From sequence record MZ997841.1: 46,142 nt of DNA; one strand, written 5' to 3'. The DNA is from Escherichia phage ULINTec7. The position numbers and the translations under genes are program-made. Under the pieces are notes generated by a model that was given only the letters and a program-made list of their open reading frames with translations, had not been told where the DNA came from and searched no databases. Positions 6,314 through 26,028 of this stretch are shown one piece after another. Each line of letters starts with the position of its first letter. The stretch's first letter is position 1.

Positions 6314-6329
6314 GTCTCACATGTGAGAC
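6314..6329. promoter_or_regulatory. Conserved palindrome GTCTCACATGTGAGAC, copy 1
   Basis: Perfect 16-bp palindrome immediately 5' of the promoter at 6331. Confidence 0.6.
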
Positions 6330-6721: not shown

Positions 6722-7875
6722 ATGGCTATTATTAATAACATCCCATGTCCTCAATGTCAGAAGAATGGACACGATAAATCAGGCAACCACCTTATGATAT
6801 TCGAGGATGGTGCTGGGTACTGTAACCGTGGTCACTTCCATGATAATGGCAGACCTTACTACCATAAGCCTGAAGGGGGCATCGAGATAACCGAGTTGCC
6901 TATTACTGGCAATATCAAATATACACCTTCCCAGTTTAAAGAGATGGAGAAGGAAGGGAAGATTAGCGACCCTAAGCTACGCGCCATCGCACTTGGTGGT
7001 ATGCGTATGAAAGACCGTTGGGAGGTTATGAATGAGCAAGAAAGGGCAGACCAAGAAACAGAGTGGAAACTTGATGTTGAATGGTTCCTCACGCTTAAGC
7101 GTAAGAATCTTGTTTCCCGACACATTCGCGGCGACATTTGCGCATTGTATGATGTACGGGTCGGACACGATGAAGAAGGTAGAGTCTCACGGCATTACTA
7201 TCCACGCTTCGAAAAATGTGAGCTAGTAGGCGCTAAGTGTCGCACATTACCTAAAGACTTTAAGTTTGGTCATTTAGGTAAACTATTTGGTATGCAAGAT
7301 CTTTTCGGTATGAATACTTTGTCTCACGTGTTAGACAAGGGAAGACGAAAGGATTGCTTGCTTATTGTCGGCGGCGAACTGGATGCACTAGCAGCACAGC
7401 AAATGCTCCTTGATTCTGCCAAGGGTACTAAGTGGGAAGGCCAGCCTTACCATGTATGGTCTGTCAATAAAGGTGAGTCTTGCCTTGAAGAGATAGTACA
7501 GAACCGTGAACACATCGCCCAATTTAAGAAGATTATATGGGGTTTTGATGGAGATGAGGTAGGGCAGAAGCAGAATCAGCAAGCGGCTCGCCTGTTTCCT
7601 GGCAAATCCTATATCCTTGAGTACCCTTCTGGTTGCAAAGATGCCAACAAGGCATTGATGGCTGGCAAGGCTAAAGAGTTTGTTGATGCATGGTTTAATG
7701 CCAAGTCATCTGATGAAGTCTTTGGTAGCCAGATTAAATCTATCGCATCTCAAAGGGATAAGCTCAAGGCTGCACGTCCAGAGCAAGGACTATCATGGCC
7801 TTGGCCTAAGCTGAACAAGGTAACGCTAGGTATTCGTAAGAACCAACTTATCATTGTAGGCGCAGGCTCTGGCGT
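6722..7875 (+). CDS. DNA primase-helicase, exon 1 (zinc ribbon, TOPRIM, start of helicase Walker A)
   Basis: CPQC...C..GHFH zinc ribbon and LLIVGGELDALAAQQ TOPRIM resemble T7 gp4. The ORF continues to ...LIIVGAGSGV and then runs into a stop at 7895-7897 within inserted sequence; the proposed exon ends at 7875. Confidence 0.7.
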
Positions 7876-8662
7876 TAACATTAGCGCCGCCATGTAGTAA
7901 TACATGGGCAATAATCGTGTGAACTCAGGGGAAGACTAGAACAGTTAATCCTGAGCCAAGCTAGGCACACCTCAAATTCAAAGGAGGTGTTATGCAATTT
8001 AAAGAAGTACCAGATCACAGTAATTATATTTGTTATGAGAATGGCACGGTTGTTAATCGTAAGACTGGAAAGGTCTTGAAAGAAGATACAACTAACCGAG
8101 GTTATAAGCGGATTACAGTAAGCAAGGGCAACAAGGTAACACGTTGGAGTGTGCACCGTTTAGTTGCTTTACTGTTTATCCCTAACCCTCATAATTATGA
8201 AACTGTTAATCACATATCGGGAGATAAGACGGATAACTCTGTTAGTAATCTTGAGTGGATGAGCCAAGAACAGAACCAAGCCCATGCTAAATATACAGGA
8301 CTGTGTCCTAAAGGTGAGGCTGTTGGCACTAATAAGTTCAAAGAGGCAACTATTCATCAAGTGTGCAAGCTAATAGAGAAAGGTTTATCTCGCGGTGAAA
8401 TTATGAAAGCAACGAGCATCTCTAAAGCAACCTTTGATGACATTCGTAGAAGGAAGACTTGGAAGCACGTATCTTGTTCATATAAATGGTGACAATCTGG
8501 TGTGCCTAGAAGGTGCAACGACTATCCCGAAAGGGAGTACAGCCAAGCGGCTGGAAGCGCACGACACCCATCGTGGGTGATGATATAGTCTGGTCTATAT
8601 GGGGACATATAGCAGTTCATAAGAGAACGGGCGTGGCTTAGCGAACCACGTCGAACATAACG
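7876..8662 (+). mobile_element. Putative group I intron carrying an HNH homing endonuclease ORF, inserted in the helicase Walker A codons
   Basis: The 5' exon ends in U (7875) and the insert ends in G (8662). Exon 3' end GGCGU can pair with intron GCGCC at 7884-7888 (P1 with a U.G wobble). The downstream frame opens right after a stop at 8658-8660 with GKTEF and no start codon. Joining gives the contiguous P-loop GAGSGVGKTEF. Confidence 0.6.
7992..8492 (+). CDS. HNH homing endonuclease (intron-encoded)
   Basis: 166 aa with HRLVALLFIPNP...VNHISGDKTDNSVSNLEW, a typical HNH/AP2-type motif; AGGAGG SD upstream; a paralog of the ORF at 10976. Confidence 0.85.
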   Translation: MQFKEVPDHSNYICYENGTVVNRKTGKVLKEDTTNRGYKRITVSKGNKVTRWSVHRLVALLFIPNPHNYETVNHISGDKTDNSVSNLEWMSQEQNQAHAKYTGLCPKGEAVGTNKFKEATIHQVCKLIEKGLSRGEIMKATSISKATFDDIRRRKTWKHVSCSYKW

Positions 8663-9497
8663 AGGTAAGACTGAGTTCCTTCGTGAAGTAGTTAAGCACC
8701 TCATTGAAGAACACGGTGAATCTGTAGGCATCATTTCTACAGAAGACCCGATGGTCAAGGTGTCCCGTGCTTTTATCGGCAAGTGGATTGATAAGCGTAT
8801 TGAGTTACCGCCAACCAACGACCCGAAAGAAGATGGATACCGTGAGGTGTTCGACTACACCGAGGAAGAAGCTAACGCCGCCATTGATTATGTAGCTGAT
8901 ACAGGTAAGCTGTTTGTGGCTGACCTAGAGGGTGACTATTCGATGGAAAAGGTAGAGCAAACTTGCCTAGAGTTTGAGGCTATGGGCATTTCTAATATCA
9001 TCATTGATAACTTAACGGGGATTAAATTAGATGAGCGTGCTTTTGGTGGGAAGGTTGGTGCACTTGATGAATGCGTCAAGCGGATTGGTACTATCAAAGA
9101 CCGACACCCGGTTACTATATTCCTTGTATCACACCTTACACGTCCTCCGGCAAACCGTACCCAACATGAAGAAGGTGGCGAAGTTATCCTTTCTGACTTC
9201 CGAGGCTCAGGCGCTATCGGATTCTGGGCATCTTACGCCTTGGGGATTGAGCGTAATACAAGAGCTGAAACGCTTGACGAAAGGACTACCACGTACATCT
9301 CATGTGTCAAAGACCGCGACCAAGGTATCTGGACTGGAACCAAGGTCATGCTTAAGGGTGACATTCAAACCGGACGTTTAATGGAACCACAAGCCCGTAC
9401 TAAGTCATTTGATACAGGTGAAGCAAGGCAACAAGAAGTGCCGGATTTACCGGACACTATAGAAGAGACAACCTTTGACGATGAACAGGAGTTTTAA
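8663..9497 (+). CDS. DNA primase-helicase, exon 2 (helicase RecA-like domain)
   Basis: Frame reads GKTEFLREVV... from 8663, through the ORF-track ATG at 8751, to DDEQEF. FLVSHLTRP and SDFRGSGAIGF...LGIERN resemble T7 gp4 helicase motifs. Exon 1 plus exon 2 is 1989 nt, a 662-aa product. Confidence 0.7.
9445..9467 (+). promoter_or_regulatory. Phage-RNAP promoter inside the helicase 3' coding region
   Basis: ATTTACCGGACACTATAGAAGAG matches the consensus. Confidence 0.65.
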
Positions 9498-10854: not shown

Positions 10855-10878
10855 GGTTGTCTCACACGTGAGACAGCC
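10855..10878. promoter_or_regulatory. Conserved palindromic hairpin, copy 4 (loop variant CACACGTG)
   Basis: GGTTGTCTCACACGTGAGACAGCC: the stem is conserved while the central dinucleotide differs. Confidence 0.55.
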
Positions 10879-10908: not shown

Positions 10909-11016
10909 ATGAATAACTACGACTCTGATTGGGATTTCTACGATTCAATGCAATCTAAACCAGAAAGGAGGGAGGATGAGTTCGAAACAGATCAAATGTA
11001 CGAGGATTTTTACTAA
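10909..11016 (+). CDS. Hypothetical small acidic protein (35 aa)
   Basis: Short ORF that overlaps the start of the HNH gene; weak call. Confidence 0.2.
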   Translation: MNNYDSDWDFYDSMQSKPERREDEFETDQMYEDFY

Positions 11017-11455
11017 CTACATCCTCTACTCTGATGGTCGAGTTCTTAACGAGAAAACCGGACAATATCTAAGAGGTTACTTAGATAAAGATGGGTATCA
11101 TATTATGAATATTAAAGGGAAACACCTTAAAGTTCATCGATTAGTTGCTATCCATTTCATACCTAACCCTAATAATTTACCTGAAGTTAACCATAAAGAT
11201 CATGACCGTCTAAACAATAATGATTGGAATCTAGAGTGGTGTACTCATCAAGATAACAACAAGCATAGCTTACATTTAGTAATAGCTTCTTGTGCTAAAC
11301 GCTATGACTTTATATCACCACAAGGTGTCCATGTAGAAGTCTATAACTTACGTGAGTTTTGTAGGAATAACAACCTACAGCAATCTCATATGGTTAAGGT
11401 GGCTAAAGGTAAAGTAAGACATCATAAAGGTTGGACTAATTATGCTAGATGTTGA
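10976..11455 (+). CDS. HNH homing endonuclease (free-standing)
   Basis: 159 aa with HRLVAIHFIPNP...VNHKDHDRLNNNDWNLEW; AGGAGGGAGG SD; paralog of the intron ORF at 7992. Confidence 0.85.
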   Translation: MSSKQIKCTRIFTNYILYSDGRVLNEKTGQYLRGYLDKDGYHIMNIKGKHLKVHRLVAIHFIPNPNNLPEVNHKDHDRLNNNDWNLEWCTHQDNNKHSLHLVIASCAKRYDFISPQGVHVEVYNLREFCRNNNLQQSHMVKVAKGKVRHHKGWTNYARC

Positions 11456-13988
11456 TTGGAAAGAATTTGGAAAGAATCGCATACTTGTCATGGATGCTGA
11501 AAGTAAAGGTTTACTTGATGCTATCCGATATGGACACCGTGAAGATGTGCATATCATTTGCTGTATGGATTTGCTTACTACCGAGGAGTTTCTCTTCTTT
11601 GACCCGTATGAGATGCGTGACCCTGAAGCAAGAGAACGCCTGAAGGAATGGGAAGGTCATCAAGATGGAACCTTGGTTGACGGTGTTAACTTCCTGAAGC
11701 ACTGTGAGGCTATTGTGTCGCAGAACTTCCTAGGGTATGACGGTCTTCTCTTTGAGAAAGCATTCCCTGATATTTGGAAAGGCTTTAACTATACCGAGAA
11801 GCGCGGTAAGGGCAGACTCCGTGCTGACCTGTGTCCTATCCGTGTTGTAGATACGCTGGTGATGAGTCGTCTGCTAAACCCAGATAGACGCCTTCCTCCG
11901 CAAGCATATGCCAAAGGCATGGGTAACGTCGCCCCTCACTCAATTGAGGCGCACGGCATCCGTATAGGCCGCTATAAACCAGAGAATGAGGACTGGTCTA
12001 AACTAACTGACCACATGGTTCACCGTGTACGTGAAGACGTGGCAATTGGTCGTGACCTTTTCCTATGGCTTTACAACGGAGAGTGGACGGAGCACAAACG
12101 CCGTGGCGTGAATAAACGTACTGGCCTAGGTATTGAGACAGCCTTCCACATGGAGTCCATTGTGGCGCTGGAGATGAGCCGTCAGGCCGAGCGCGGGTTC
12201 CGTCTGGACATCGACAAGGCTTTGTCCCGATGCGAAGAATTGGACGCTAAGATTGACGAGACAGTCGCAGCGTTCCGCCCTCACATGCCTATGCGTATCA
12301 AGTCTAAACCTTTTAAACCGGAAGAAAAGAATGAAGTATGCCAACGCGCAAATGAGTATGGAGCTAGCAACAATATACCTACTGTCCTTGACCCCTCACA
12401 CTTTCTTCATGCCGAGAGACGAGGAGATCGCAAGACAGTATGGAGTGTCACTACTAAGTCTGGTGATTGGTCGGCTAGTGTCAAGAAAGACTTTCCTCAC
12501 CTTAGAGGAAACCGTAATGACACGCCAAGCATCAAGTGGATTGGCGCTTACTCGCCTGTTACTTTCGAAGAGATTCCCTTGGGTAACAGGGATACAGTTA
12601 AGCAAGTGCTCTATGATTATGGATGGAAAGGTGTTGAATTTAACGATACCGAGCAAGCGCATCTCGATGAGCACGGAGTGTTACCCAAACCTTGGAGTGG
12701 TAAGATAAATGAAAAGTCCCTTACTTTATGGCAAGAAAGAGCCGCACGTGAAGGTAAAACAGTCCCTGATTGGTGCTTGGGTATCGCTGCATGGTACATA
12801 CTCGTATCCCGTCGTGGTCAGATACTCAACCGTGGTGACGTTGAAGCCTTCAACGAGAAGGGAACGTGGCCCTCGCAGGCTGGTGTACGAAAGTGTCGCG
12901 GCCTTGTACCTGTAGCATTCAACAAGGAGCTAGGAATCAATGCGCAGCAATACTACGAGAGGTACGGATATTGGCCTACGTCTGACAAAGATGACGGAGA
13001 GTGGCGTGTTCCAGCTGTTGCTATTAGTATTGGCACTTCTACGTTCCGTATGCGTCATCGTAACGTGGTTAATATTCCTGCCCGTGGCTTGTATCCTTTA
13101 CGTGATTTATTCATAGCAGGGAAAGGCAAGCTAATCCTTGGTTGTGACGGTGCAGGTCTTGAACTGCGTGTCCTGTCTCACTTCATGAATGACCCTGAGT
13201 ACCAAGAGATTGTACTGCACGGTGATATTCATACGCATAACCAGATGAAGGCTGGTCTTCCTAAGCGTGATATGGCGAAGACGTTTATATACGCCTTCCT
13301 CTATGGCTCTGGTATAGCCAACCTTGCAGCAGTATGTGGTGTTACTGAGGAGGAAATGAAGGAAGTTGTGGCAAGATTCGAGATTGAACTGCCGTCTCTT
13401 GCACGTCTTCGTGAGAATGTTATCGCACAAGGTAACAAGTTTGGCTACCTGCAAGCACCTGATGGGCATTGGGGTCGCATCCGCATGTCTGGTGGTGAAC
13501 TTAAAGAGCACACTATGCTTAACGTATTACTCCAGATGACTGGCTCTTTGTGTATGAAATATGCATTAGTAAAGGCATTTGCAGTAATGCGCAAGGAAGG
13601 TGTAGCCTTGGATGCTATGGGAAGCCCTTGTGGTGTGGCTAACGTCCACGATGAAATCCAGATGGAAGTTCCTGAAGAAGAGGTCTTGTACCTTAACTAT
13701 GACCTACCTTTCACCTTAGAAGGGTTTGAAACAGAGAAGGCTGCTGTGAAAGCAGTGTTCGATGCAGAAGAGAAACGTGTTCATGTGGATTCTGAAGGAC
13801 GTATGTGGTCTGCTGCAAACCTCGTTAGTGTTGATGCTGATGCTGGTGTACTTCATTGTCAGCGCCGTTATCACCGTGCTGGGCATATCATTGCCGACGC
13901 CATGACTTGGGCTGGTCAGTATCTGAAGATGCGTTGCCCGATGGCAGGAGAATATAAGATTGGCACAAGTTGGAAGGAAACACACTGA
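11442..13988 (+). CDS. DNA polymerase (family A, T7 gp5-like)
   Basis: N-terminal exo motif ILVMDAESKG resembles T7 MIVSDIEAN; GCDGAGLELRVLSHF, GDIHTHNQ...AKTFIYAFLYG and HDEIQ polymerase motifs. Start is uncertain between 11442 and 11490. Confidence 0.93.
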   Translation: MLDVDWKEFGKNRILVMDAESKGLLDAIRYGHREDVHIICCMDLLTTEEFLFFDPYEMRDPEARERLKEWEGHQDGTLVDGVNFLKHCEAIVSQNFLGYDGLLFEKAFPDIWKGFNYTEKRGKGRLRADLCPIRVVDTLVMSRLLNPDRRLPPQAYAKGMGNVAPHSIEAHGIRIGRYKPENEDWSKLTDHMVHRVREDVAIGRDLFLWLYNGEWTEHKRRGVNKRTGLGIETAFHMESIVALEMSRQAERGFRLDIDKALSRCEELDAKIDETVAAFRPHMPMRIKSKPFKPEEKNEVCQRANEYGASNNIPTVLDPSHFLHAERRGDRKTVWSVTTKSGDWSASVKKDFPHLRGNRNDTPSIKWIGAYSPVTFEEIPLGNRDTVKQVLYDYGWKGVEFNDTEQAHLDEHGVLPKPWSGKINEKSLTLWQERAAREGKTVPDWCLGIAAWYILVSRRGQILNRGDVEAFNEKGTWPSQAGVRKCRGLVPVAFNKELGINAQQYYERYGYWPTSDKDDGEWRVPAVAISIGTSTFRMRHRNVVNIPARGLYPLRDLFIAGKGKLILGCDGAGLELRVLSHFMNDPEYQEIVLHGDIHTHNQMKAGLPKRDMAKTFIYAFLYGSGIANLAAVCGVTEEEMKEVVARFEIELPSLARLRENVIAQGNKFGYLQAPDGHWGRIRMSGGELKEHTMLNVLLQMTGSLCMKYALVKAFAVMRKEGVALDAMGSPCGVANVHDEIQMEVPEEEVLYLNYDLPFTLEGFETEKAAVKAVFDAEEKRVHVDSEGRMWSAANLVSVDADAGVLHCQRRYHRAGHIIADAMTWAGQYLKMRCPMAGEYKIGTSWKETH

Positions 13989-14259: not shown

Positions 14260-14520
14260 ATGATTAAATCACAGAAGTATTTCTCAACTAAAGATCGTAA
14301 GGTAGGTTTTGAAATCAAAGTTTGGGAAGACGGACACATTACTATTATTTATGAAGGTAAAGGTTCTAATGGTATGATGCTACGCAGATGCCGTACATTC
14401 ACAAAGAAAGAATGTATGCATATGTCTGAATGCATGTTTCTTTACATCATTGCTGATGATATTAAAGGTATGAAGCTAATTGTATCTCTACCTTTAATAC
14501 CTAAATCTTTGTTAGGTTGA
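14260..14520 (+). CDS. Hypothetical protein (86 aa)
   Basis: ORF with GGAG SD. Confidence 0.5.
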   Translation: MIKSQKYFSTKDRKVGFEIKVWEDGHITIIYEGKGSNGMMLRRCRTFTKKECMHMSECMFLYIIADDIKGMKLIVSLPLIPKSLLG

Positions 14521-14543
14521 TTTACTGGACACTATAGAAGGAA
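14521..14543 (+). promoter_or_regulatory. Phage-RNAP promoter
   Basis: TTTACTGGACACTATAGAAGGAA. Confidence 0.75.
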
Positions 14544-14606: not shown

Positions 14607-14984
14607 ATGTCTATGGTAACTACTCTGGTATTTGTAGCTCAATACTTTCGTGGTCTGGCTAATAAGTTCAAGTCCAAGGCTATCAAAGCTATTGAGTCTC
14701 GCATCGAGGTAGTACAGGCAGAGCAAGTTAAAGTTGAAGAACATCGTAGTTCTCAAATGATTGACTGCCATAACCGCTACTATGCATCTCGTGATGACCT
14801 TAATGCACGCCAAGTCAAAGAGGTTGAAGATATGATGGCACGTCACCAGCAAGAGCGTGACAGCATGAAAGCTGAATTTGAAGAGAACAAGGCATCCATT
14901 GCTCTGGTACACCAATCTGCATCTGACAGTCTGAAGAAAGAGATTGTTATGCTTGAAATCGAACTGGACAACCTGACCAAATAA
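14607..14984 (+). CDS. Hypothetical protein (125 aa)
   Basis: ORF downstream of the promoter with AGGAG SD. Confidence 0.55.
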   Translation: MSMVTTLVFVAQYFRGLANKFKSKAIKAIESRIEVVQAEQVKVEEHRSSQMIDCHNRYYASRDDLNARQVKEVEDMMARHQQERDSMKAEFEENKASIALVHQSASDSLKKEIVMLEIELDNLTK

Positions 14985-15459: not shown

Positions 15460-16266
15460 ATGGCACGTGGTGATTTTGATTTTGGTGCTTCCGTATCTAA
15501 AGCTGAAGGTAAAGTCTTTAAGAACCCAGAAGTAGGTGATCATGAAGCAGTAATCTCTGGCATCATTCATGTTGGTTCCTTCCAAGACATCTTTAAGAAA
15601 GGTAATACCACTGAAGTTAAGAAGCCAGCAAACTTTGTTCTAGTTAAGATTGTCCTGATGGGCGACGATGACAAGAACGAAGATGATTCTCGCATGGAAC
15701 AATGGATGGCTGTTCCTCTGAAGTCTGGTGATAAGGCAACACTGACTAAGTTCCTAAATGCAGTTGACCCAAAAGAATTGCTTGGTGGCTTCGATGATTT
15801 TATCGGGGAATGCCTGACTGCAACTATGGTTGGCTCTGGTGACAAGAATGACGATGGTTCATTCAAGTATGTTAACTGGAAAGGATTCGGTGGTATGCCT
15901 GACAAGCTTAAGAAACTTGTCATTGCTCAGGTTGAAGAAGAGGGTCTGTCTATGACAGGTCACATCACCTTCGACAAGCTGACCAAAGAAATCCTTGATG
16001 ACATTCCTGCTAACTTGGTACGCCAATACTTCCTGAATGAAACGCCTCGTGGTAAGAACCTGTCTGTTGCTGGCTCTCATGTAGAAGCAATCATTAAAGC
16101 TGCTCGTGAAGAAGACCCAGAGTGGAAGAAGGCCAAGAAGAAAGATGATGAGGATGCCACTCCAGCTAATCGTAAATCTCTGGACACTGGTGAGTCTGTT
16201 CCGCAGGAAGTACCTGAAGCAGAAGATACGCCTGCACCGGAGATGGATGAGGACGCAGAATATTAA
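15460..16266 (+). CDS. Putative ssDNA-binding protein (gp2.5-like by architecture)
   Basis: 268 aa with an acidic C-terminal tail ending in an aromatic residue (PEMDEDAEY), as in the T7 gp2.5 tail. The assignment is an inference from architecture only. Confidence 0.4.
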   Translation: MARGDFDFGASVSKAEGKVFKNPEVGDHEAVISGIIHVGSFQDIFKKGNTTEVKKPANFVLVKIVLMGDDDKNEDDSRMEQWMAVPLKSGDKATLTKFLNAVDPKELLGGFDDFIGECLTATMVGSGDKNDDGSFKYVNWKGFGGMPDKLKKLVIAQVEEEGLSMTGHITFDKLTKEILDDIPANLVRQYFLNETPRGKNLSVAGSHVEAIIKAAREEDPEWKKAKKKDDEDATPANRKSLDTGESVPQEVPEAEDTPAPEMDEDAEY

Positions 16267-16275
16267 GGAGAACTG

Positions 16276-16494
16276 ATGAAAGTACAAATCGTAACTCTGC
16301 ATTGCAAGAAAGGAATCACCACGCTTGGCGGCAATACTTTCCACTCCTTCTCCGAGGGGGAGGTTTATTCTGACCTGCACTACATCTGGCGCGATGGACA
16401 GCACGTGGTGAACTACAGCGACCCAGCTACGGGTAAACGCCACGGCGTATCGCTTCCGGCGCATGACATTGCTCAGGTGAACACAGTTTTATAA
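16276..16494 (+). CDS. Hypothetical protein (72 aa)
   Basis: ORF with AGGAG SD. Confidence 0.45.
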   Translation: MKVQIVTLHCKKGITTLGGNTFHSFSEGEVYSDLHYIWRDGQHVVNYSDPATGKRHGVSLPAHDIAQVNTVL

Positions 16495-16495
16495 A

Positions 16496-16511
16496 GTCTC
16501 ACATGTGAGAC
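16496..16511. promoter_or_regulatory. Conserved palindrome GTCTCACATGTGAGAC, copy 5
   Basis: Lies 15 nt upstream of the promoter at 16526. Confidence 0.6.
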
Positions 16512-16525
16512 AAATCGGTGTCCGG

Positions 16526-16549
16526 TATTTACTGGACACTATAGAAGAG
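16526..16549 (+). promoter_or_regulatory. Phage-RNAP promoter
   Basis: TATTTACTGGACACTATAGAAGAG. Confidence 0.8.
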
Positions 16550-16598
16550 AAGAATTTTAATCGGCGATAATGCCACAACTAACAAAGGAGAATTTAAT

Positions 16599-16976
16599 AT
16601 GTTCAAGATTGAAACTATCGTAAACCGTGTTGTTAAAGGTGCTGCTCTGGTATCCGTTGAGTCTTTCATTATCGTCGATGAAGCTGATCAACTGGTAGCT
16701 GGTACTAAGGCTTACGATACCCGTGAAGAAGCTCAGGCTAAGATTGACAGCATGGGTAACTTCGCTGCTGGTCTGGAGTTCGCTCGTGCTTGCTTCCCTG
16801 AGCAGGCTGACAAAGCTCAGATTGGTAAGGCTAATATCGTAGCTGAATATCTGGATTGGATTGCTGCTGGTAAGCCGGTGAAAGAAGTTAAGTCTGCTGA
16901 AGAAGCTGAAGCTCAGGCAGTAGAAGAAGTAGCTGCACCGGTAGATGCTCCGGTAAGCGAAGAAGAAGAGTTTTAA
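16599..16976 (+). CDS. Hypothetical acidic protein (125 aa) with C-terminal SEEEEF tail
   Basis: Bracketed by a consensus promoter upstream and a hairpin plus T-run downstream; AAGGAG SD. Confidence 0.65.
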   Translation: MFKIETIVNRVVKGAALVSVESFIIVDEADQLVAGTKAYDTREEAQAKIDSMGNFAAGLEFARACFPEQADKAQIGKANIVAEYLDWIAAGKPVKEVKSAEEAEAQAVEEVAAPVDAPVSEEEEF

Positions 16977-16982
16977 TTGATG

Positions 16983-17014
16983 CCCTGTCTGCCTTAGTGT
17001 AGGCAGGGTCTTTT
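16983..17014 (+). terminator. Putative intrinsic terminator
   Basis: Stem CTGCCT/AGGCAG with a 6-nt loop, followed by GGTCTTTTG. Confidence 0.45.
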
Positions 17015-17040
17015 GCGTAATAGTTATTGGAGAATGAATT

Positions 17041-17346
17041 ATGCCGACTATTAAATCTCGTTTAGTAGCAGACTATGTGTATGGTCGTGACTTAAAGTTA
17101 ATGCAAGATTACTTTAAAGTAATCATCCTGCTGGATGGAGAAGTGTTTCACACTAAAACATTCACCCTTCCTGAATTGTTTGATTTAGGTTATTGGGTTT
17201 ATACATATCAGGCCATAGCAGACAAGGTGCTACTCAGTGTATTAGAGGAGTGGCCTACATGCGACCAAACTTCGACTTCGGAGCTACAGTATCGGAAGAC
17301 AATAATCTCATCTTGTGGCCAACTGAAGGTAATAGAATCGCTTTAA
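17041..17346 (+). CDS. Hypothetical protein (101 aa)
   Basis: ORF with GGAG SD that overlaps the exonuclease start by about 88 nt. Confidence 0.3.
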   Translation: MPTIKSRLVADYVYGRDLKLMQDYFKVIILLDGEVFHTKTFTLPELFDLGYWVYTYQAIADKVLLSVLEEWPTCDQTSTSELQYRKTIISSCGQLKVIESL

Positions 17347-18287
17347 TAGATGCTGATATGCTACCCTACATCGTAGCTTATACAATCAGTGACATGACTT
17401 ATGTGCGAGCCACAACTCGTGTTAAGTCAGGACAAGTCCCATCAATCAAAGATACACCTGAGTGTAAGCAAGCGTGTGACCGTGTGAACTCCTTGCTCAA
17501 CTCTTGGGTGTATGCAGCAGAGTGTGATGCAGCTAAGTTATTCATGACGAAATCAGAAGCTAACTTCCGTGTTCGCCTAGCCTTCACCAAGCCTTATAAG
17601 GGTCAACGTAAGACCGAGAAGCCTCCGTTCTTCTATGAATTGCGAGAGCATCTCTTAGAGGTTCATGGTGCAATCTTGGCAGATGGAGAAGAGGCTGATG
17701 ACCTCATGAGCATTGCACAATGGGACAGCCACCGCCGCTTCCAGCAAGATACAGGTAACGAGTTCCCTATCGGTAGTCCAGAGCATAAAGCATTCTCTGA
17801 TACTTGCATCGTTTCCTTAGATAAGGATTTGATGATTGTTCCCGGTTGGCATCTTCAGCCGGGTCAAGAGAAGAAATGGGTAGAGCCTATGGGTTGGCTT
17901 GAGTTACGCCGTAAGGCTAATGGTCAGGTTAAAGACCTTAAAGGTGCTGGCCTCATGTTTCATTATGCACAGATGATTATCGGTGATGATATTGATAACT
18001 ATGCTGGCATACCTGGACGTGGTGCTAAATACGCCTATGATCTTCTCAAAGATTGTAAGACAGAGAAAGAGTTGTACATGGCAGTGCTTGGTGCTTACAA
18101 GGCTAAGTTCGGACATGGACAAGTTAAGATTAAGAATTACCGAGGTGGTTATCGTATCGGCAAGGCCTTTGACCTGATGCTCGAATGTGGTCGCCTAGCT
18201 CACATGGCAAGATTCAAAGGTGATATATGGCGAGCCGATAAGAACCCAATCTTGTGGGGAGATGATGCGGAATGGTTAGCAAATTAA
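17259..18287 (+). CDS. 5'-3' exonuclease (T7 gp6 / FEN-like)
   Basis: IALIDADMLPYIVAY, IVSLDKDLMIVPG and GDDIDNYAGIPGRG resemble T7 gp6 ILVMDGDWLV, IISCDKDFKTIP and GDITDGYSGIAGWG. Start at 17259 has AGAGGAG SD; an alternative ATG lies at 17193. Confidence 0.85.
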   Translation: MRPNFDFGATVSEDNNLILWPTEGNRIALIDADMLPYIVAYTISDMTYVRATTRVKSGQVPSIKDTPECKQACDRVNSLLNSWVYAAECDAAKLFMTKSEANFRVRLAFTKPYKGQRKTEKPPFFYELREHLLEVHGAILADGEEADDLMSIAQWDSHRRFQQDTGNEFPIGSPEHKAFSDTCIVSLDKDLMIVPGWHLQPGQEKKWVEPMGWLELRRKANGQVKDLKGAGLMFHYAQMIIGDDIDNYAGIPGRGAKYAYDLLKDCKTEKELYMAVLGAYKAKFGHGQVKIKNYRGGYRIGKAFDLMLECGRLAHMARFKGDIWRADKNPILWGDDAEWLAN

Positions 18288-19682: not shown

Positions 19683-19700
19683 TTGACACTATAGAACAAA
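19677..19700 (+). promoter_or_regulatory. Phage-RNAP promoter (variant)
   Basis: ATTTAGTTGACACTATAGAACAAA. Confidence 0.6.
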
Positions 19701-19782: not shown

Positions 19783-20286
19783 ATGTCACACTATGAATGT
19801 AAGAAGTGTCATAAGCGTTATGATTACTGTACTTGTGGTCAAGAGAAAACATCTTTTAAAGTTGGAGACAAGGTATTTCGTAATGAAAAAGATTCTATTC
19901 CTTGGAATCAATACTGCAAAGAAGCTGGTATTGACCCTGATAGCCCTGTAACCATAGATGATATTGATGGCATTAACTTGTGCTTTCGTGAGGTGAGGGG
20001 TACAGGTTGGGATTCCAAAAAATTCAAACTTGCATCTGATAAGTTAGACAACAATATGGTAACTCAGCCTAAGCACTACGAGTTCTTTGATGGCGTAGAA
20101 GCAATTACTATCATCGCCCGTAGTATGACCGAGAAGCAATTCGCGGGGTATTGCATGGGTAATGCTTTGAAGTATCGTCTGCGTGCAGGTAAGAAGTTCA
20201 ATACTGAAGAAGACCTGAAGAAAGCAGACTACTACAAAGAGTTATTCCAGAAGCACCGTCACGAATGTATTGATGAGGATATTTGA
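19783..20286 (+). CDS. Hypothetical protein, DUF3310-like
   Basis: PKHYEFFDGVEAITIIARSMT...GNALKYRLRAGKK resembles the DUF3310 family from memory. Start at 19783 with GGAGGA SD. Confidence 0.45.
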   Translation: MSHYECKKCHKRYDYCTCGQEKTSFKVGDKVFRNEKDSIPWNQYCKEAGIDPDSPVTIDDIDGINLCFREVRGTGWDSKKFKLASDKLDNNMVTQPKHYEFFDGVEAITIIARSMTEKQFAGYCMGNALKYRLRAGKKFNTEEDLKKADYYKELFQKHRHECIDEDI

Positions 20287-20287
20287 T

Positions 20288-21235
20288 ATGAATATCTTTG
20301 AGTTCCTAGGTCTTCCAGAAGACCACCGCAATCACCCATTCATGCTGGTGAAGCATCGCGGTGAAGTTCCTGAGAAGAAATTAACTTTTCCATGTTATGC
20401 ACAGGTGAAACGAGATGGTATCTTTTCTGCTGTTGTTGTTCGCACTGATGGTATCGTTGGCATTTTTGGTCGCACTGGTAAGAAATTGGCAAACACTGAA
20501 GGACTCGAACAAGCCTTTGCTACCTTTCCGGTTGGCATTTATCTTGGTGAGCTTCAGTCTATGGCCATTGATATCTACCTTGAGGCAATCTCTGGGGTTG
20601 TGAACCCCAATCGCACTGAGCCACTTGATTTCATAGGCCAGCAGATTAAAGACAACCTGTATATCGACTTCTTCGATATGTTAACTATTAAGGCATTCCA
20701 TGATGGATTCACTGATGTTTCTTATCTCAAACGTTACGATGCTTTACATCGTCGTATCGGCGCTCATCTTAGCGGGTGCAACGCTATCCTTCCTATCACT
20801 CCTTGCCATAATGAGCGAGAAGTTGAAGCGTTTGCGCAAGAGCAAATAGATGCAGGACGTGAGGGTGCTGTATTCAAACTAGACTGCGATTATGAAGCAG
20901 GACACAAAGGTTATCGTCAGACTAAAGAAGTCCGTAAGGTAACCTATGACCTTACTTGTATTGGCTTTGAAGAAGGTAAAGGCAAATACAAAGGTAAGGT
21001 AGCTAACCTCATTTTCAAATGGAAAGGAGGCAAGACAATCAAAGCTATGTTAGGTAAGGGGTGGACTCATGCAGATGCAGAACAGATGTTCCACGACATT
21101 AAACATGGTGGACGATTGAATGTCATTGGTAAAATCTTTGAAGTCAAAGGTCTTCAGGATTCAAGCAAGGGCAACATTCGTCTGCCCAAAGCGGGAGAAT
21201 TAAGACATGACAAAGATGAACCAGATTTCTTTTGA
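20288..21235 (+). CDS. ATP-dependent DNA ligase
   Basis: Candidate adenylation motif I K-x-D-G-I at QVKRDGIFS; size and position fit a phage ligase. Start at 20288 follows the upstream stop. Confidence 0.7.
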   Translation: MNIFEFLGLPEDHRNHPFMLVKHRGEVPEKKLTFPCYAQVKRDGIFSAVVVRTDGIVGIFGRTGKKLANTEGLEQAFATFPVGIYLGELQSMAIDIYLEAISGVVNPNRTEPLDFIGQQIKDNLYIDFFDMLTIKAFHDGFTDVSYLKRYDALHRRIGAHLSGCNAILPITPCHNEREVEAFAQEQIDAGREGAVFKLDCDYEAGHKGYRQTKEVRKVTYDLTCIGFEEGKGKYKGKVANLIFKWKGGKTIKAMLGKGWTHADAEQMFHDIKHGGRLNVIGKIFEVKGLQDSSKGNIRLPKAGELRHDKDEPDFF

Positions 21236-21422
21236 TAGCATGAAGGCAACTCGTGCAGTTGAGGTAGCAGAAGCTATCTTCGAAACTTTATCCTGTGGCA
21301 TGGAAGTGCCATATACTTTACTTGCTGATGCAGAAGAACTTGGTCTTTCTGTAGAAGCTATCCAAGAGAAGGTTGACGAATTATATGGTACAGACGAAGA
21401 AGAAACCGACGATTTCATTTGA
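21207..21422 (+). CDS. Hypothetical acidic protein (71 aa)
   Basis: ORF overlapping the ligase 3' end. Confidence 0.4.
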   Translation: MTKMNQISFDSMKATRAVEVAEAIFETLSCGMEVPYTLLADAEELGLSVEAIQEKVDELYGTDEEETDDFI

Positions 21423-25986: not shown

Positions 25987-25994
25987 TACCTATG

Positions 25995-26028
25995 CCCTAT
26001 CTACCCTGCGTAGGTAGGGTTCTTTTTG
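25995..26028 (+). terminator. Intrinsic-type terminator after the capsid gene
   Basis: 10-bp stem (25995-26004 pairing with 26010-26019), 5-nt loop, then TTCTTTTTGTT. Confidence 0.7.

Follow-up and report, generated by a model that had tools for sequence, protein, structure and literature searches.

Escherichia phage ULINTec7 (MZ997841.1; its whole 46,142-nt stretch is called the window here) carries a plus-strand open reading frame (ORF) at 16599..16976 that encodes a 125-aa protein with the C-terminus PVSEEEEF. This ORF is the counterpart of SP6 gene 20 and K1E gp18, and its product is referred to below as the gene 20 protein. Our analysis suggests a conserved and, judging from its predicted expression, abundantly made accessory protein of the replication module of SP6-like phages (Molineuxvirinae, Colwellvirinae, and relatives). 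The protein consists of a small globular domain of unassigned fold, acidic to neutral in charge, followed by a flexible acidic linker and a tip of the form [DE]-x-[F/Y], which belongs to the same co-evolving tail class as the tips of the primase-helicase and of an OB-fold protein resembling a single-stranded DNA (ssDNA)-binding protein (SSB). Because the three tips fall into one such class, a single receptor most likely serves as the docking point of all three tails. The T7 proteins gp2.5 and gp4 suggest by analogy that this receptor would be a basic site of the phage DNA polymerase, and grooves elsewhere in the replisome that bind DNA are further possibilities. The tail of the gene 20 protein would then either tether the N-terminal domain and its ligand to the replisome or compete with the helicase and the SSB for the site. 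We give about an even chance to an abundant replication accessory protein that shares its tail receptor with the helicase and the SSB-like protein, a proposal in which we infer the abundance, the identity of the receptor, and the role as adaptor or competitor, and which builds on the observed layout and conservation of the protein, its expression signals, the co-variation of the tails, and the OB fold of the neighboring protein.

Positions 16200-17400 share 99.7% identity with Vectrevirus T147P9 and 84% with Salmonella phage SP6, and the window is therefore that of a K1E/K1-5/SP6-like podophage (Autographiviridae, Molineuxvirinae; Vectrevirus). The gene 20 protein matches the PHROG 4429 profile over its full length (E 8.5e-57; protein residues 1-125, profile positions 1-121 of 121) and is 95% identical to SP6_20 over 79% of the length. 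It is present in 212 phage records, with the gene order DNA polymerase, SSB-like protein, (small ORF), gene 20 protein, exonuclease, endonuclease VII retained, and it is labeled "hypothetical protein" in all annotated records inspected. A literature search returned no functional study of the family, and a third acidic-tail carrier of this kind is not described in the texts that were searched; the original SP6/K1-5 genome descriptions may already remark on the tails. That acidic, aromatic-tipped docking tails operate in a phage replisome is known already; what appears to be new here is the third carrier, with its unassigned fold and its conservation in more than 200 phages.

Conservation of the C-Terminal Tip

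The tip of the gene 20 protein (codons 119-125, VSEEEEF, plus stop; 16953..16976, + strand) lies at the end of the tail peptide AAPVDAPVSEEEEF. All 120 of the closest homologues end in EEEF. Among 22 distant representatives, which share 29-58% identity, about 19 end in [DE]-x-F, with examples such as EEETF, EEVDF, EGETF, DEAF, GEESF, DENF, GEDF, and similar sequences. The pattern [DE]-x-[FY] is thus kept from 98% to ~30% identity while the linker ahead of it drifts, so that the C-terminus has the features of a docking tail, namely a disordered acidic segment with a conserved aromatic end on a variable linker. The aromatic is the very last residue in most lineages and is followed by one or two residues (FEG, FE, FS) in all five Pseudomonas Uliginvirus loci. 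A sequence-only reading of this DNA had pointed to the 125-aa ORF with its acidic, Phe-ended tail and had likened SEEEEF to the tails of T7 gp2.5 and gp4; the tail is there, and the likeness holds in that it is acidic, aromatic-ended, and conserved at the frequencies just given.

A scan of the ends of 56 plus-strand ORFs of the window shows how restricted this feature is. An acidic end with a terminal aromatic is found in only four of them, the helicase, a 268-aa protein, the gene 20 protein, and the DNA ligase, all in the replication module, and in none of the early, structural, or lysis ORFs scanned. The primase-helicase tail FDDEQEF lies at 9474..9497 (+ strand), at the end (TFDDEQEF) of the exon-2 ORF 8751..9497, and the tail of the 268-aa protein, EMDEDAEY, at 16240-16263. 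These two proteins, the second with an OB fold, carry the same class of tail as the gene 20 protein of the same phage. The endings DDEQEF and EMDEDAEY had been read for the helicase and the SSB-like protein from the letters alone, and both are found at the ends of the respective ORFs.

The earlier count of three proteins with acidic tails stands for these three but misses the fourth such terminus, that of the DNA ligase (20270..21235), which behaves differently. The ligase ends in ..RHDKDEPDFF, and its acidic end starts without a linker, directly after an OB domain that reaches to residue 312 of 321; in relatives the ending is ..HDKxx[PGA]D[FY]. With no linker and no co-variation with the other three tails, the ligase terminus was rejected as a fourth member of the class, and its acidic end is probably a different, ligase-specific feature. 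A 71-aa acidic ORF after the ligase (21207..21422, isoelectric point (pI) 4.1) ends in EEETDDFI, with the aromatic in the penultimate position.

Co-variation of the Three Tails

The C-termini of the helicase, the SSB-like protein, the gene 20 protein, and the ligase were taken from ~45 loci. The commonest pattern, given in the order helicase/SSB-like/gene 20 protein, is xEF/xEF/xEF. Vibrio Vp670 has TQEF/EQEF/DEEF and Marinomonas CB5A has SQEF/ESEF/EESF. In Aeromonas MJG the tips change jointly, to GASY/EATY/DAAY, and loci L043-45 have SEY/AEY/EEY, with EEY on the SSB-like protein of L045. Extension beyond the aromatic is also shared. In five of five Pseudomonas Uliginvirus loci, one or two residues follow it in both the SSB-like and the gene 20 protein (QEFGE/ESFEG, EVFE/EAFEG, QTFD/ESFS), and the helicase has such residues in only two of the five (L012, ETFD; L017, KTFE).

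These similarities were evaluated by a permutation test that compares the BLOSUM62 similarity of the last four residues within a phage with that across phages. With 13 representatives (<80% identity in the SSB-like protein), the test gives p = 0.0002 for helicase-SSB-like, 0.002 for helicase-gene 20, and 0.0006 for SSB-like-gene 20 pairs. With seven representatives (<60% identity), the corresponding values are p = 0.018, 0.007, and 0.04. The ligase terminus served as the negative control and shows no co-variation, every pairing giving p = 0.1-0.9. A shared docking partner, as proposed in the sequence-only reading, is therefore supported indirectly, since tips are more alike within a phage than across phages and the ligase control is negative.

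The tails could also be generic. Acidic, disordered "bristles" that serve solubility, self-shielding, or charge balance would need no common partner, and the function of the gene 20 protein would then reside wholly in its N-terminal domain. The N-terminal domain is indeed the best conserved part of the protein, and the three distant representatives without an aromatic tip fit such an explanation. A bristle, however, would not be expected to hold an aromatic at its very end over the range of 30-98% identity against a drifting linker, nor to co-vary with the ends of two other proteins when the ligase control shows no such signal, and the absence of such ends from the early, structural, and lysis ORFs of the window argues in the same direction. 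We therefore regard generic tails as quite unlikely.

Several points weigh against the proposed replication accessory protein with a shared tail receptor. Three of the 22 distant representatives lack the aromatic tip. Two of the tip-less homologues lie on ~1-kb metagenome contigs, where the adjacent SSB-like protein keeps its own ending, ..DEDEEF or ..DDSKDF. The co-variation rests on about three to five independent lineage events, and relatedness inflates the p-values obtained with 13 representatives. The SP6 helicase ends in QEFNG, while the other two SP6 tails end at the aromatic, and throughout the SP6/K1E group the tip of the SSB-like protein is EY while those of the helicase and the gene 20 protein are EF. 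A host-encoded receptor that differs by host genus would yield the same co-variation. Lastly, a gene 20 protein that is predicted to be more abundant than the SSB and the helicase with the same tail might be expected to inhibit rather than help.

With regard to a receptor in the host, tips differ within a single metagenome sample (3300045988), in which L023/L028 have EF and L044/L045 have EY, although the hosts of these loci may differ. To our knowledge, host SSB tips are essentially invariant (DDDIPF). The phage tips diverge between loci and are sometimes not terminal, and the receptor of the three tails is for this reason most likely phage-encoded.

Comparison with T7 and a Candidate Docking Site

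Coordinated DNA replication has its simplest model in the T7 replisome, where acidic, Phe-ended tails are the main protein-protein coupling. The tails of T7 gp2.5 and gp4 dock on the front basic patch of gp5, which comprises K587/K589/R590/R591, and the DTDF peptide of gp4 is visible at this patch in PDB 6P7E (PMC12339929). The tails in the window resemble them in being disordered, acidic, and aromatic-ended and in being borne by several proteins of one replisome. In T7, acidic aromatic tails occur on gp2.5 (..EDGDF) and gp4 (..NDTDF) only, whereas here there are three carriers, ending in ..EEEEF (gene 20 protein), ..DEQEF (helicase), and ..EDAEY (SSB-like protein), of which the gene 20 protein has no T7 homologue. 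Unlike gp2.5, the gene 20 protein has an acidic domain and no OB fold, and an hhalign comparison of its profile with gp2.5 gives a probability of 0.1%, indicating no homology. The same comparison against 27 T7 class II proteins gives probabilities that are all <2%; the gene 20 protein is therefore without a T7 counterpart.

By the T7 analogy, the candidate docking partner is the DNA polymerase (ORF 11442..13988). A HMMER alignment to the front basic patch of T7 gp5 places the candidate docking site at GHWGRIR, polymerase residues 675-681 (13464..13484, + strand), with H-W-G-R-I-R opposite T7 K587-W-K589-R590-R591. These residues are part of a conserved family motif, DG[HR]WGR[IV]R..GK, and the polymerase keeps a Trp and two to five basic residues at the position of the T7 patch. 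A basic, Trp-containing site is thus retained, which is compatible with docking without being evidence for it. The analogy suggests the polymerase as the leading candidate for the receptor.

The tip of E. coli SSB (..DDDIPF) is a protein-interaction hub motif and offers a second comparison. Both proteins have a folded domain, a flexible linker, and an acidic tip ending in Phe, and this domain-linker-tip layout of the gene 20 protein is the one known from SSB-type hub proteins. They differ in that the gene 20 protein is not an SSB and its tip lacks Ile-Pro, varies by lineage, and is sometimes not terminal.

It is possible, though we consider it doubtful, that the acidic-tail docking site of SP6-like replisomes serves a third, dedicated client, an abundant, phage-encoded small subunit with a new fold and without a T7 counterpart. 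If so, this client could be an adaptor, a processivity or coupling factor of the polymerase, or a stoichiometric regulator that gates access of the helicase and the SSB, and the textbook four-protein replisome of T7 would not be a general model for Autographiviridae. The large sister group in question, to which SP6, K1E, K1-5, and many therapy and biocontrol phages of Klebsiella, Vibrio, Pseudomonas, and Erwinia belong, seems to follow the tail logic of T7 with a different SSB-like protein and an extra, probably very abundant protein of unassigned fold. Identifying the receptor would give a function to a core "hypothetical" gene of more than 200 sequenced phages and would probe tail competition as a general regulatory principle at replisomes.

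Architecture of the Gene 20 Protein and the Neighboring SSB-like Protein

An AlphaFold2 model of the gene 20 protein was built on an alignment of 23 diverse sequences. Residues 1-95 are modeled confidently, with a predicted local distance difference test (pLDDT) score of ~90, as a globular N-terminal domain (16599..16883, + strand) composed of a β-hairpin (3-13/16-26) followed by three helices (42-51, 53-65, and 71-89). This domain, the best conserved part of the protein, contains the motif GKANxVAxYLxW. Its net charge ranges from -5 to +1 across the family, that is, from acidic to neutral, which disfavors nucleic-acid binding; the protein as a whole is acidic, with a pI of 4.3. Residues 96-125 are predicted to be disordered (pLDDT ~50). 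They comprise the tip and, ahead of it, an Ala/Glu/Pro/Val-rich acidic linker (codons 96-118; 16884..16952, + strand) that shows insertions, deletions, and substitutions even between homologues >90% identical and that, across the 23 alignment rows, is 9-32 residues long with a net charge of +1 to -13.

Searches for relatives place this protein in a small, self-contained family. No match came from Pfam, NCBIfam, or PDB sequences, whether single sequences or the profile served as query, and a Foldseek search of the model against BFVD gave one significant match only, to an uncharacterized Pseudomonas phage protein that is 35% identical. Among 1.84 billion cluster representatives scanned exhaustively with HMMER, only 24 relatives were recovered, all of them single-domain proteins of 87-149 aa. 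A profile of the N-terminal domain alone found 240 proteins, and the 120 matches listed are all ~120-128 aa long and free of domain fusions. Some likeness to DUF1508/UPF0339 (YegP-like) proteins was seen, in the form of a BFVD match to a DUF1508 protein at E 0.34, one NR homologue labeled DUF1508, and a similar-looking motif, G-x-K-x-[YH]-x-[ST]-x-E-x-A. The Pfam model, however, matches only one of 23 members, below threshold (E 0.16) and over residues ~15-55 only. As DUF1508 has no known function, a link to it would explain nothing about the gene 20 protein.

The model bears on whether the gene 20 protein might itself coat ssDNA as the SSB, or a second SSB, of the phage. Such a role would account for its predicted abundance and its gp2.5-like acidic aromatic tail, and the location in the replication module is suitable. 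The modeled fold, a β-hairpin with three helices, is not an OB fold, the net charge of the domain is unfavorable, similarity to gp2.5 is lacking, and the adjacent 268-aa protein is the better candidate. We consider this role very improbable.

The adjacent protein (15460..16266, + strand) belongs to the SP6 gene 18 family (PHROG 862). Its OB core stands between a conserved FDFG peptide at the N-terminus and the acidic tail. Its residues 1-18 (15460..15520) read FDFG/FDYGGxVAE, with F6 and G9 nearly invariant, and are predicted to be disordered (pLDDT ~35). The OB fold, the N-terminal peptide, and the acidic tail together make it a plausible SSB, and the label "SSB-like" that it had received at first sight is borne out by the modeled OB fold and the tail. 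T7 gp2.5 is absent from the top 60 structural matches of this protein. T4 gp32 has an N-terminal cooperativity peptide, an OB core, and an acidic C-terminal domain. The 268-aa protein, and not the gene 20 protein, resembles it in this order of parts, although the two have no sequence relationship. The SSB-like protein is found in 215 phage records, essentially the same as the 212 with the gene 20 protein; the counts are equal in 9 of 10 listed organism-name groups, the remaining one being Pseudomonas (15 versus 12).

Expression Cassette and Predicted Abundance

The gene 20 ORF lies in what looks like a cassette for high expression. The promoter ATTTACTGGACACTATAGAAGAG (16527..16549, + strand) matches the consensus of the phage promoters of the window at 23 of 23 positions, and its 16-mer core occurs 13 times in the window as compared to 0.38 expected. 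It is predicted to be active with the phage RNA polymerase (RNAP) of the SP6 type, with G16544 presumably at +1, as in the SP6 promoter. A σ70 identity was rejected, a σ70 scan being empty at this site and without excess in the window overall. The consensus promoter proposed earlier is thus real, but it is of the phage-RNAP (SP6) type, the σ70 type being excluded. A Shine-Dalgarno sequence, AAGGAG (16585..16590, + strand), can be read 8 nt ahead of the ATG.

Downstream of the stop codon, an intrinsic-terminator-like hairpin at 16982..17015 (+ strand) has an 11-bp GC-rich stem (16982-17009) with a 6-nt loop, followed by CTTTTG. Its folding energy is -18.3 kcal/mol (z = -3.8), and a stable GC-rich hairpin followed by a U-run is what defines an intrinsic (class I, Tφ-like) terminator, so that it qualifies as a putative one; the hairpin and T-run noticed from the letters are therefore both found. 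A near twin stands after the major capsid gene at 25994-26025, GCCCTATCTACC..GGTAGGGTTCTTTTTG as compared to GCCCTGTCTGCC..GGCAGGGTCTTTTG after the gene 20 ORF, and from their sequences the two appear to be paralogous terminators. Downstream of the hairpin, no phage promoter comes before that at 19684. Since the exonuclease and endonuclease genes would depend on read-through, the hairpin probably stops the phage RNAP only in part. An Rfam search of the expression cassette gave no match.

Codon usage points the same way. The fraction of E. coli optimal codons, scored with the Ikemura list, is 0.76 in the gene 20 ORF, the highest of 55 plus-strand ORFs; the value for the capsid gene is 0.70. Ala is encoded by GCT in 22 of 24 cases, Gly by GGT in 6 of 6, and Arg by CGT in 3 of 3, and the ORF uses CCG for three of four Pro (13% elsewhere) and CTG for four of four Leu (17% in 22 other genes). 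The bias toward highly expressed genes that the sequence-only reading had noted is thus the strongest among the 55 ORFs, and the high expression it had deduced is consistent with the full-consensus promoter, the strong ribosome-binding site (RBS), the codon bias, and the putative terminator.

The cassette is not peculiar to the window. In a survey of 19 loci from Molineuxvirinae and Colwellvirinae with hosts in Escherichia, Salmonella, Klebsiella, Erwinia, Vibrio, Marinomonas, Aeromonas, and Pseudomonas, a GC-rich hairpin with a T-run stands directly 3' of the orthologous stop codon in 17, with at least 13 distinct stem sequences, and in 11 of 12 lineages the orthologous start is preceded, at a distance of 50-80 nt, by a repeated phage-promoter motif that is specific to the lineage. 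Because promoter and terminator are kept in position across lineages, the predicted high expression is a conserved property of the gene. The gene 10 cassette of T7 consists of a strong phage promoter, a strong RBS, and the Tφ terminator. The gene 20 cassette shares with it a consensus phage promoter, a strong Shine-Dalgarno sequence, top codon adaptation, and a hairpin with a U-run directly after the gene, but it surrounds a 125-aa nonstructural gene in the replication module. It resembles a natural high-expression unit for an SP6-type RNAP.

The predicted excess of the gene 20 protein over the helicase and the SSB is hard to reconcile with a simple helper and leaves room for a regulatory or host-directed role. 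As a host-directed decoy or inhibitor, an abundant acidic protein with a tail that mimics ssDNA or the host SSB tip would titrate an abundant host protein, be it a nuclease, a member of the SSB interactome, RNA polymerase, or a nucleoid protein, and it would resemble T7 gp5.5, gp5.9, and gp2, which are encoded in the corresponding stretch from polymerase to exonuclease or in the class II region. Very high predicted expression fits stoichiometric titration, and the acidity of the whole protein and the acidic-to-neutral N-terminal domain also favor a decoy. The position between polymerase and exonuclease parallels T7 genes 5.3-5.9, and a host receptor could in principle account for tips that co-vary by host genus. 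Yet the hhalign comparison gave no similarity to T7 class II proteins, and the phage tips vary, whereas those of host SSBs, as far as we know, hardly do. The residues past the aromatic in Pseudomonas phages would fit poorly into pockets that need the carboxylate of a terminal Phe. Tips also differ between loci of the one metagenome sample noted above, whose hosts may differ, and, as the helicase and SSB-like protein of the phage itself bear the tip too, a partner in the replisome is favored. We thus think a decoy unlikely and prefer a replication accessory protein with a shared tail receptor.

A perfect 16-bp palindrome, GTCTCACATGTGAGAC, lies at 16496..16511 (+ strand), 2 nt past the stop codon of the upstream 72-aa ORF and 15 nt ahead of the promoter, where a palindrome had been reported from the letters. 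It has eight matches in the window, five of them exact, as compared to 0.26 expected. The copies at 6314, 6505, 9676, 10859, 16496, and 32868 are all intergenic (five exact; that at 10859 has one mismatch), mostly stand directly 3' of a stop codon, and are often shortly ahead of a phage promoter. As RNA, the palindrome would form a 6-bp hairpin of -7.2 kcal/mol. Relatives from Vibrio, Aeromonas, and Pseudomonas have variants of the form GTCTCAC-N2-3-GTGAGAC ahead of the orthologous gene, and phage Alpheus has 10 copies of the half-sites GTCTCAC/GTGAGAC. Because the sequence is kept across subfamilies, it may be a site for some conserved factor, probably encoded by the phage, or else a specific element of RNA 3' ends.

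Other Features of the Window

The primase-helicase gene of the window is interrupted. ORF 6722..7897 corresponds to residues 1-385 of the SP6 helicase and ORF 8751..9497 to residues 415-659, and the gene is uninterrupted in relatives such as EcG9 and SP6. The insert at 7898-8750 contains a homing-endonuclease ORF (HNH_3 + HTH) at 7992..8492 and a group-I-intron-like RNA (RF00028; E 1e-7, with 37 bits where the gathering score is 50). The helicase coding sequence also harbors a phage promoter close to consensus, ATTTACCGGACACTATAGAAGAG (22 of 23 positions), at 9445-9467; these letters encode ..PDLPDTIEET.. a short way ahead of the acidic tail. Another HNH_3 endonuclease ORF (10976..11455) directly precedes the DNA polymerase gene, whose start at 11442 it overlaps. 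In Erwinia phage phiEa1H, the polymerase gene is split into parts A and B, and an HNH DNase-like gene lies directly downstream of B.

Another 125-aa ORF, at 14607..14984, has the third-highest codon bias in the window (0.68) and its own promoter at ~14520-14542. It is labeled "polysaccharide chain length determinant protein" in GenBank relatives and has no Pfam match; the label looks doubtful.

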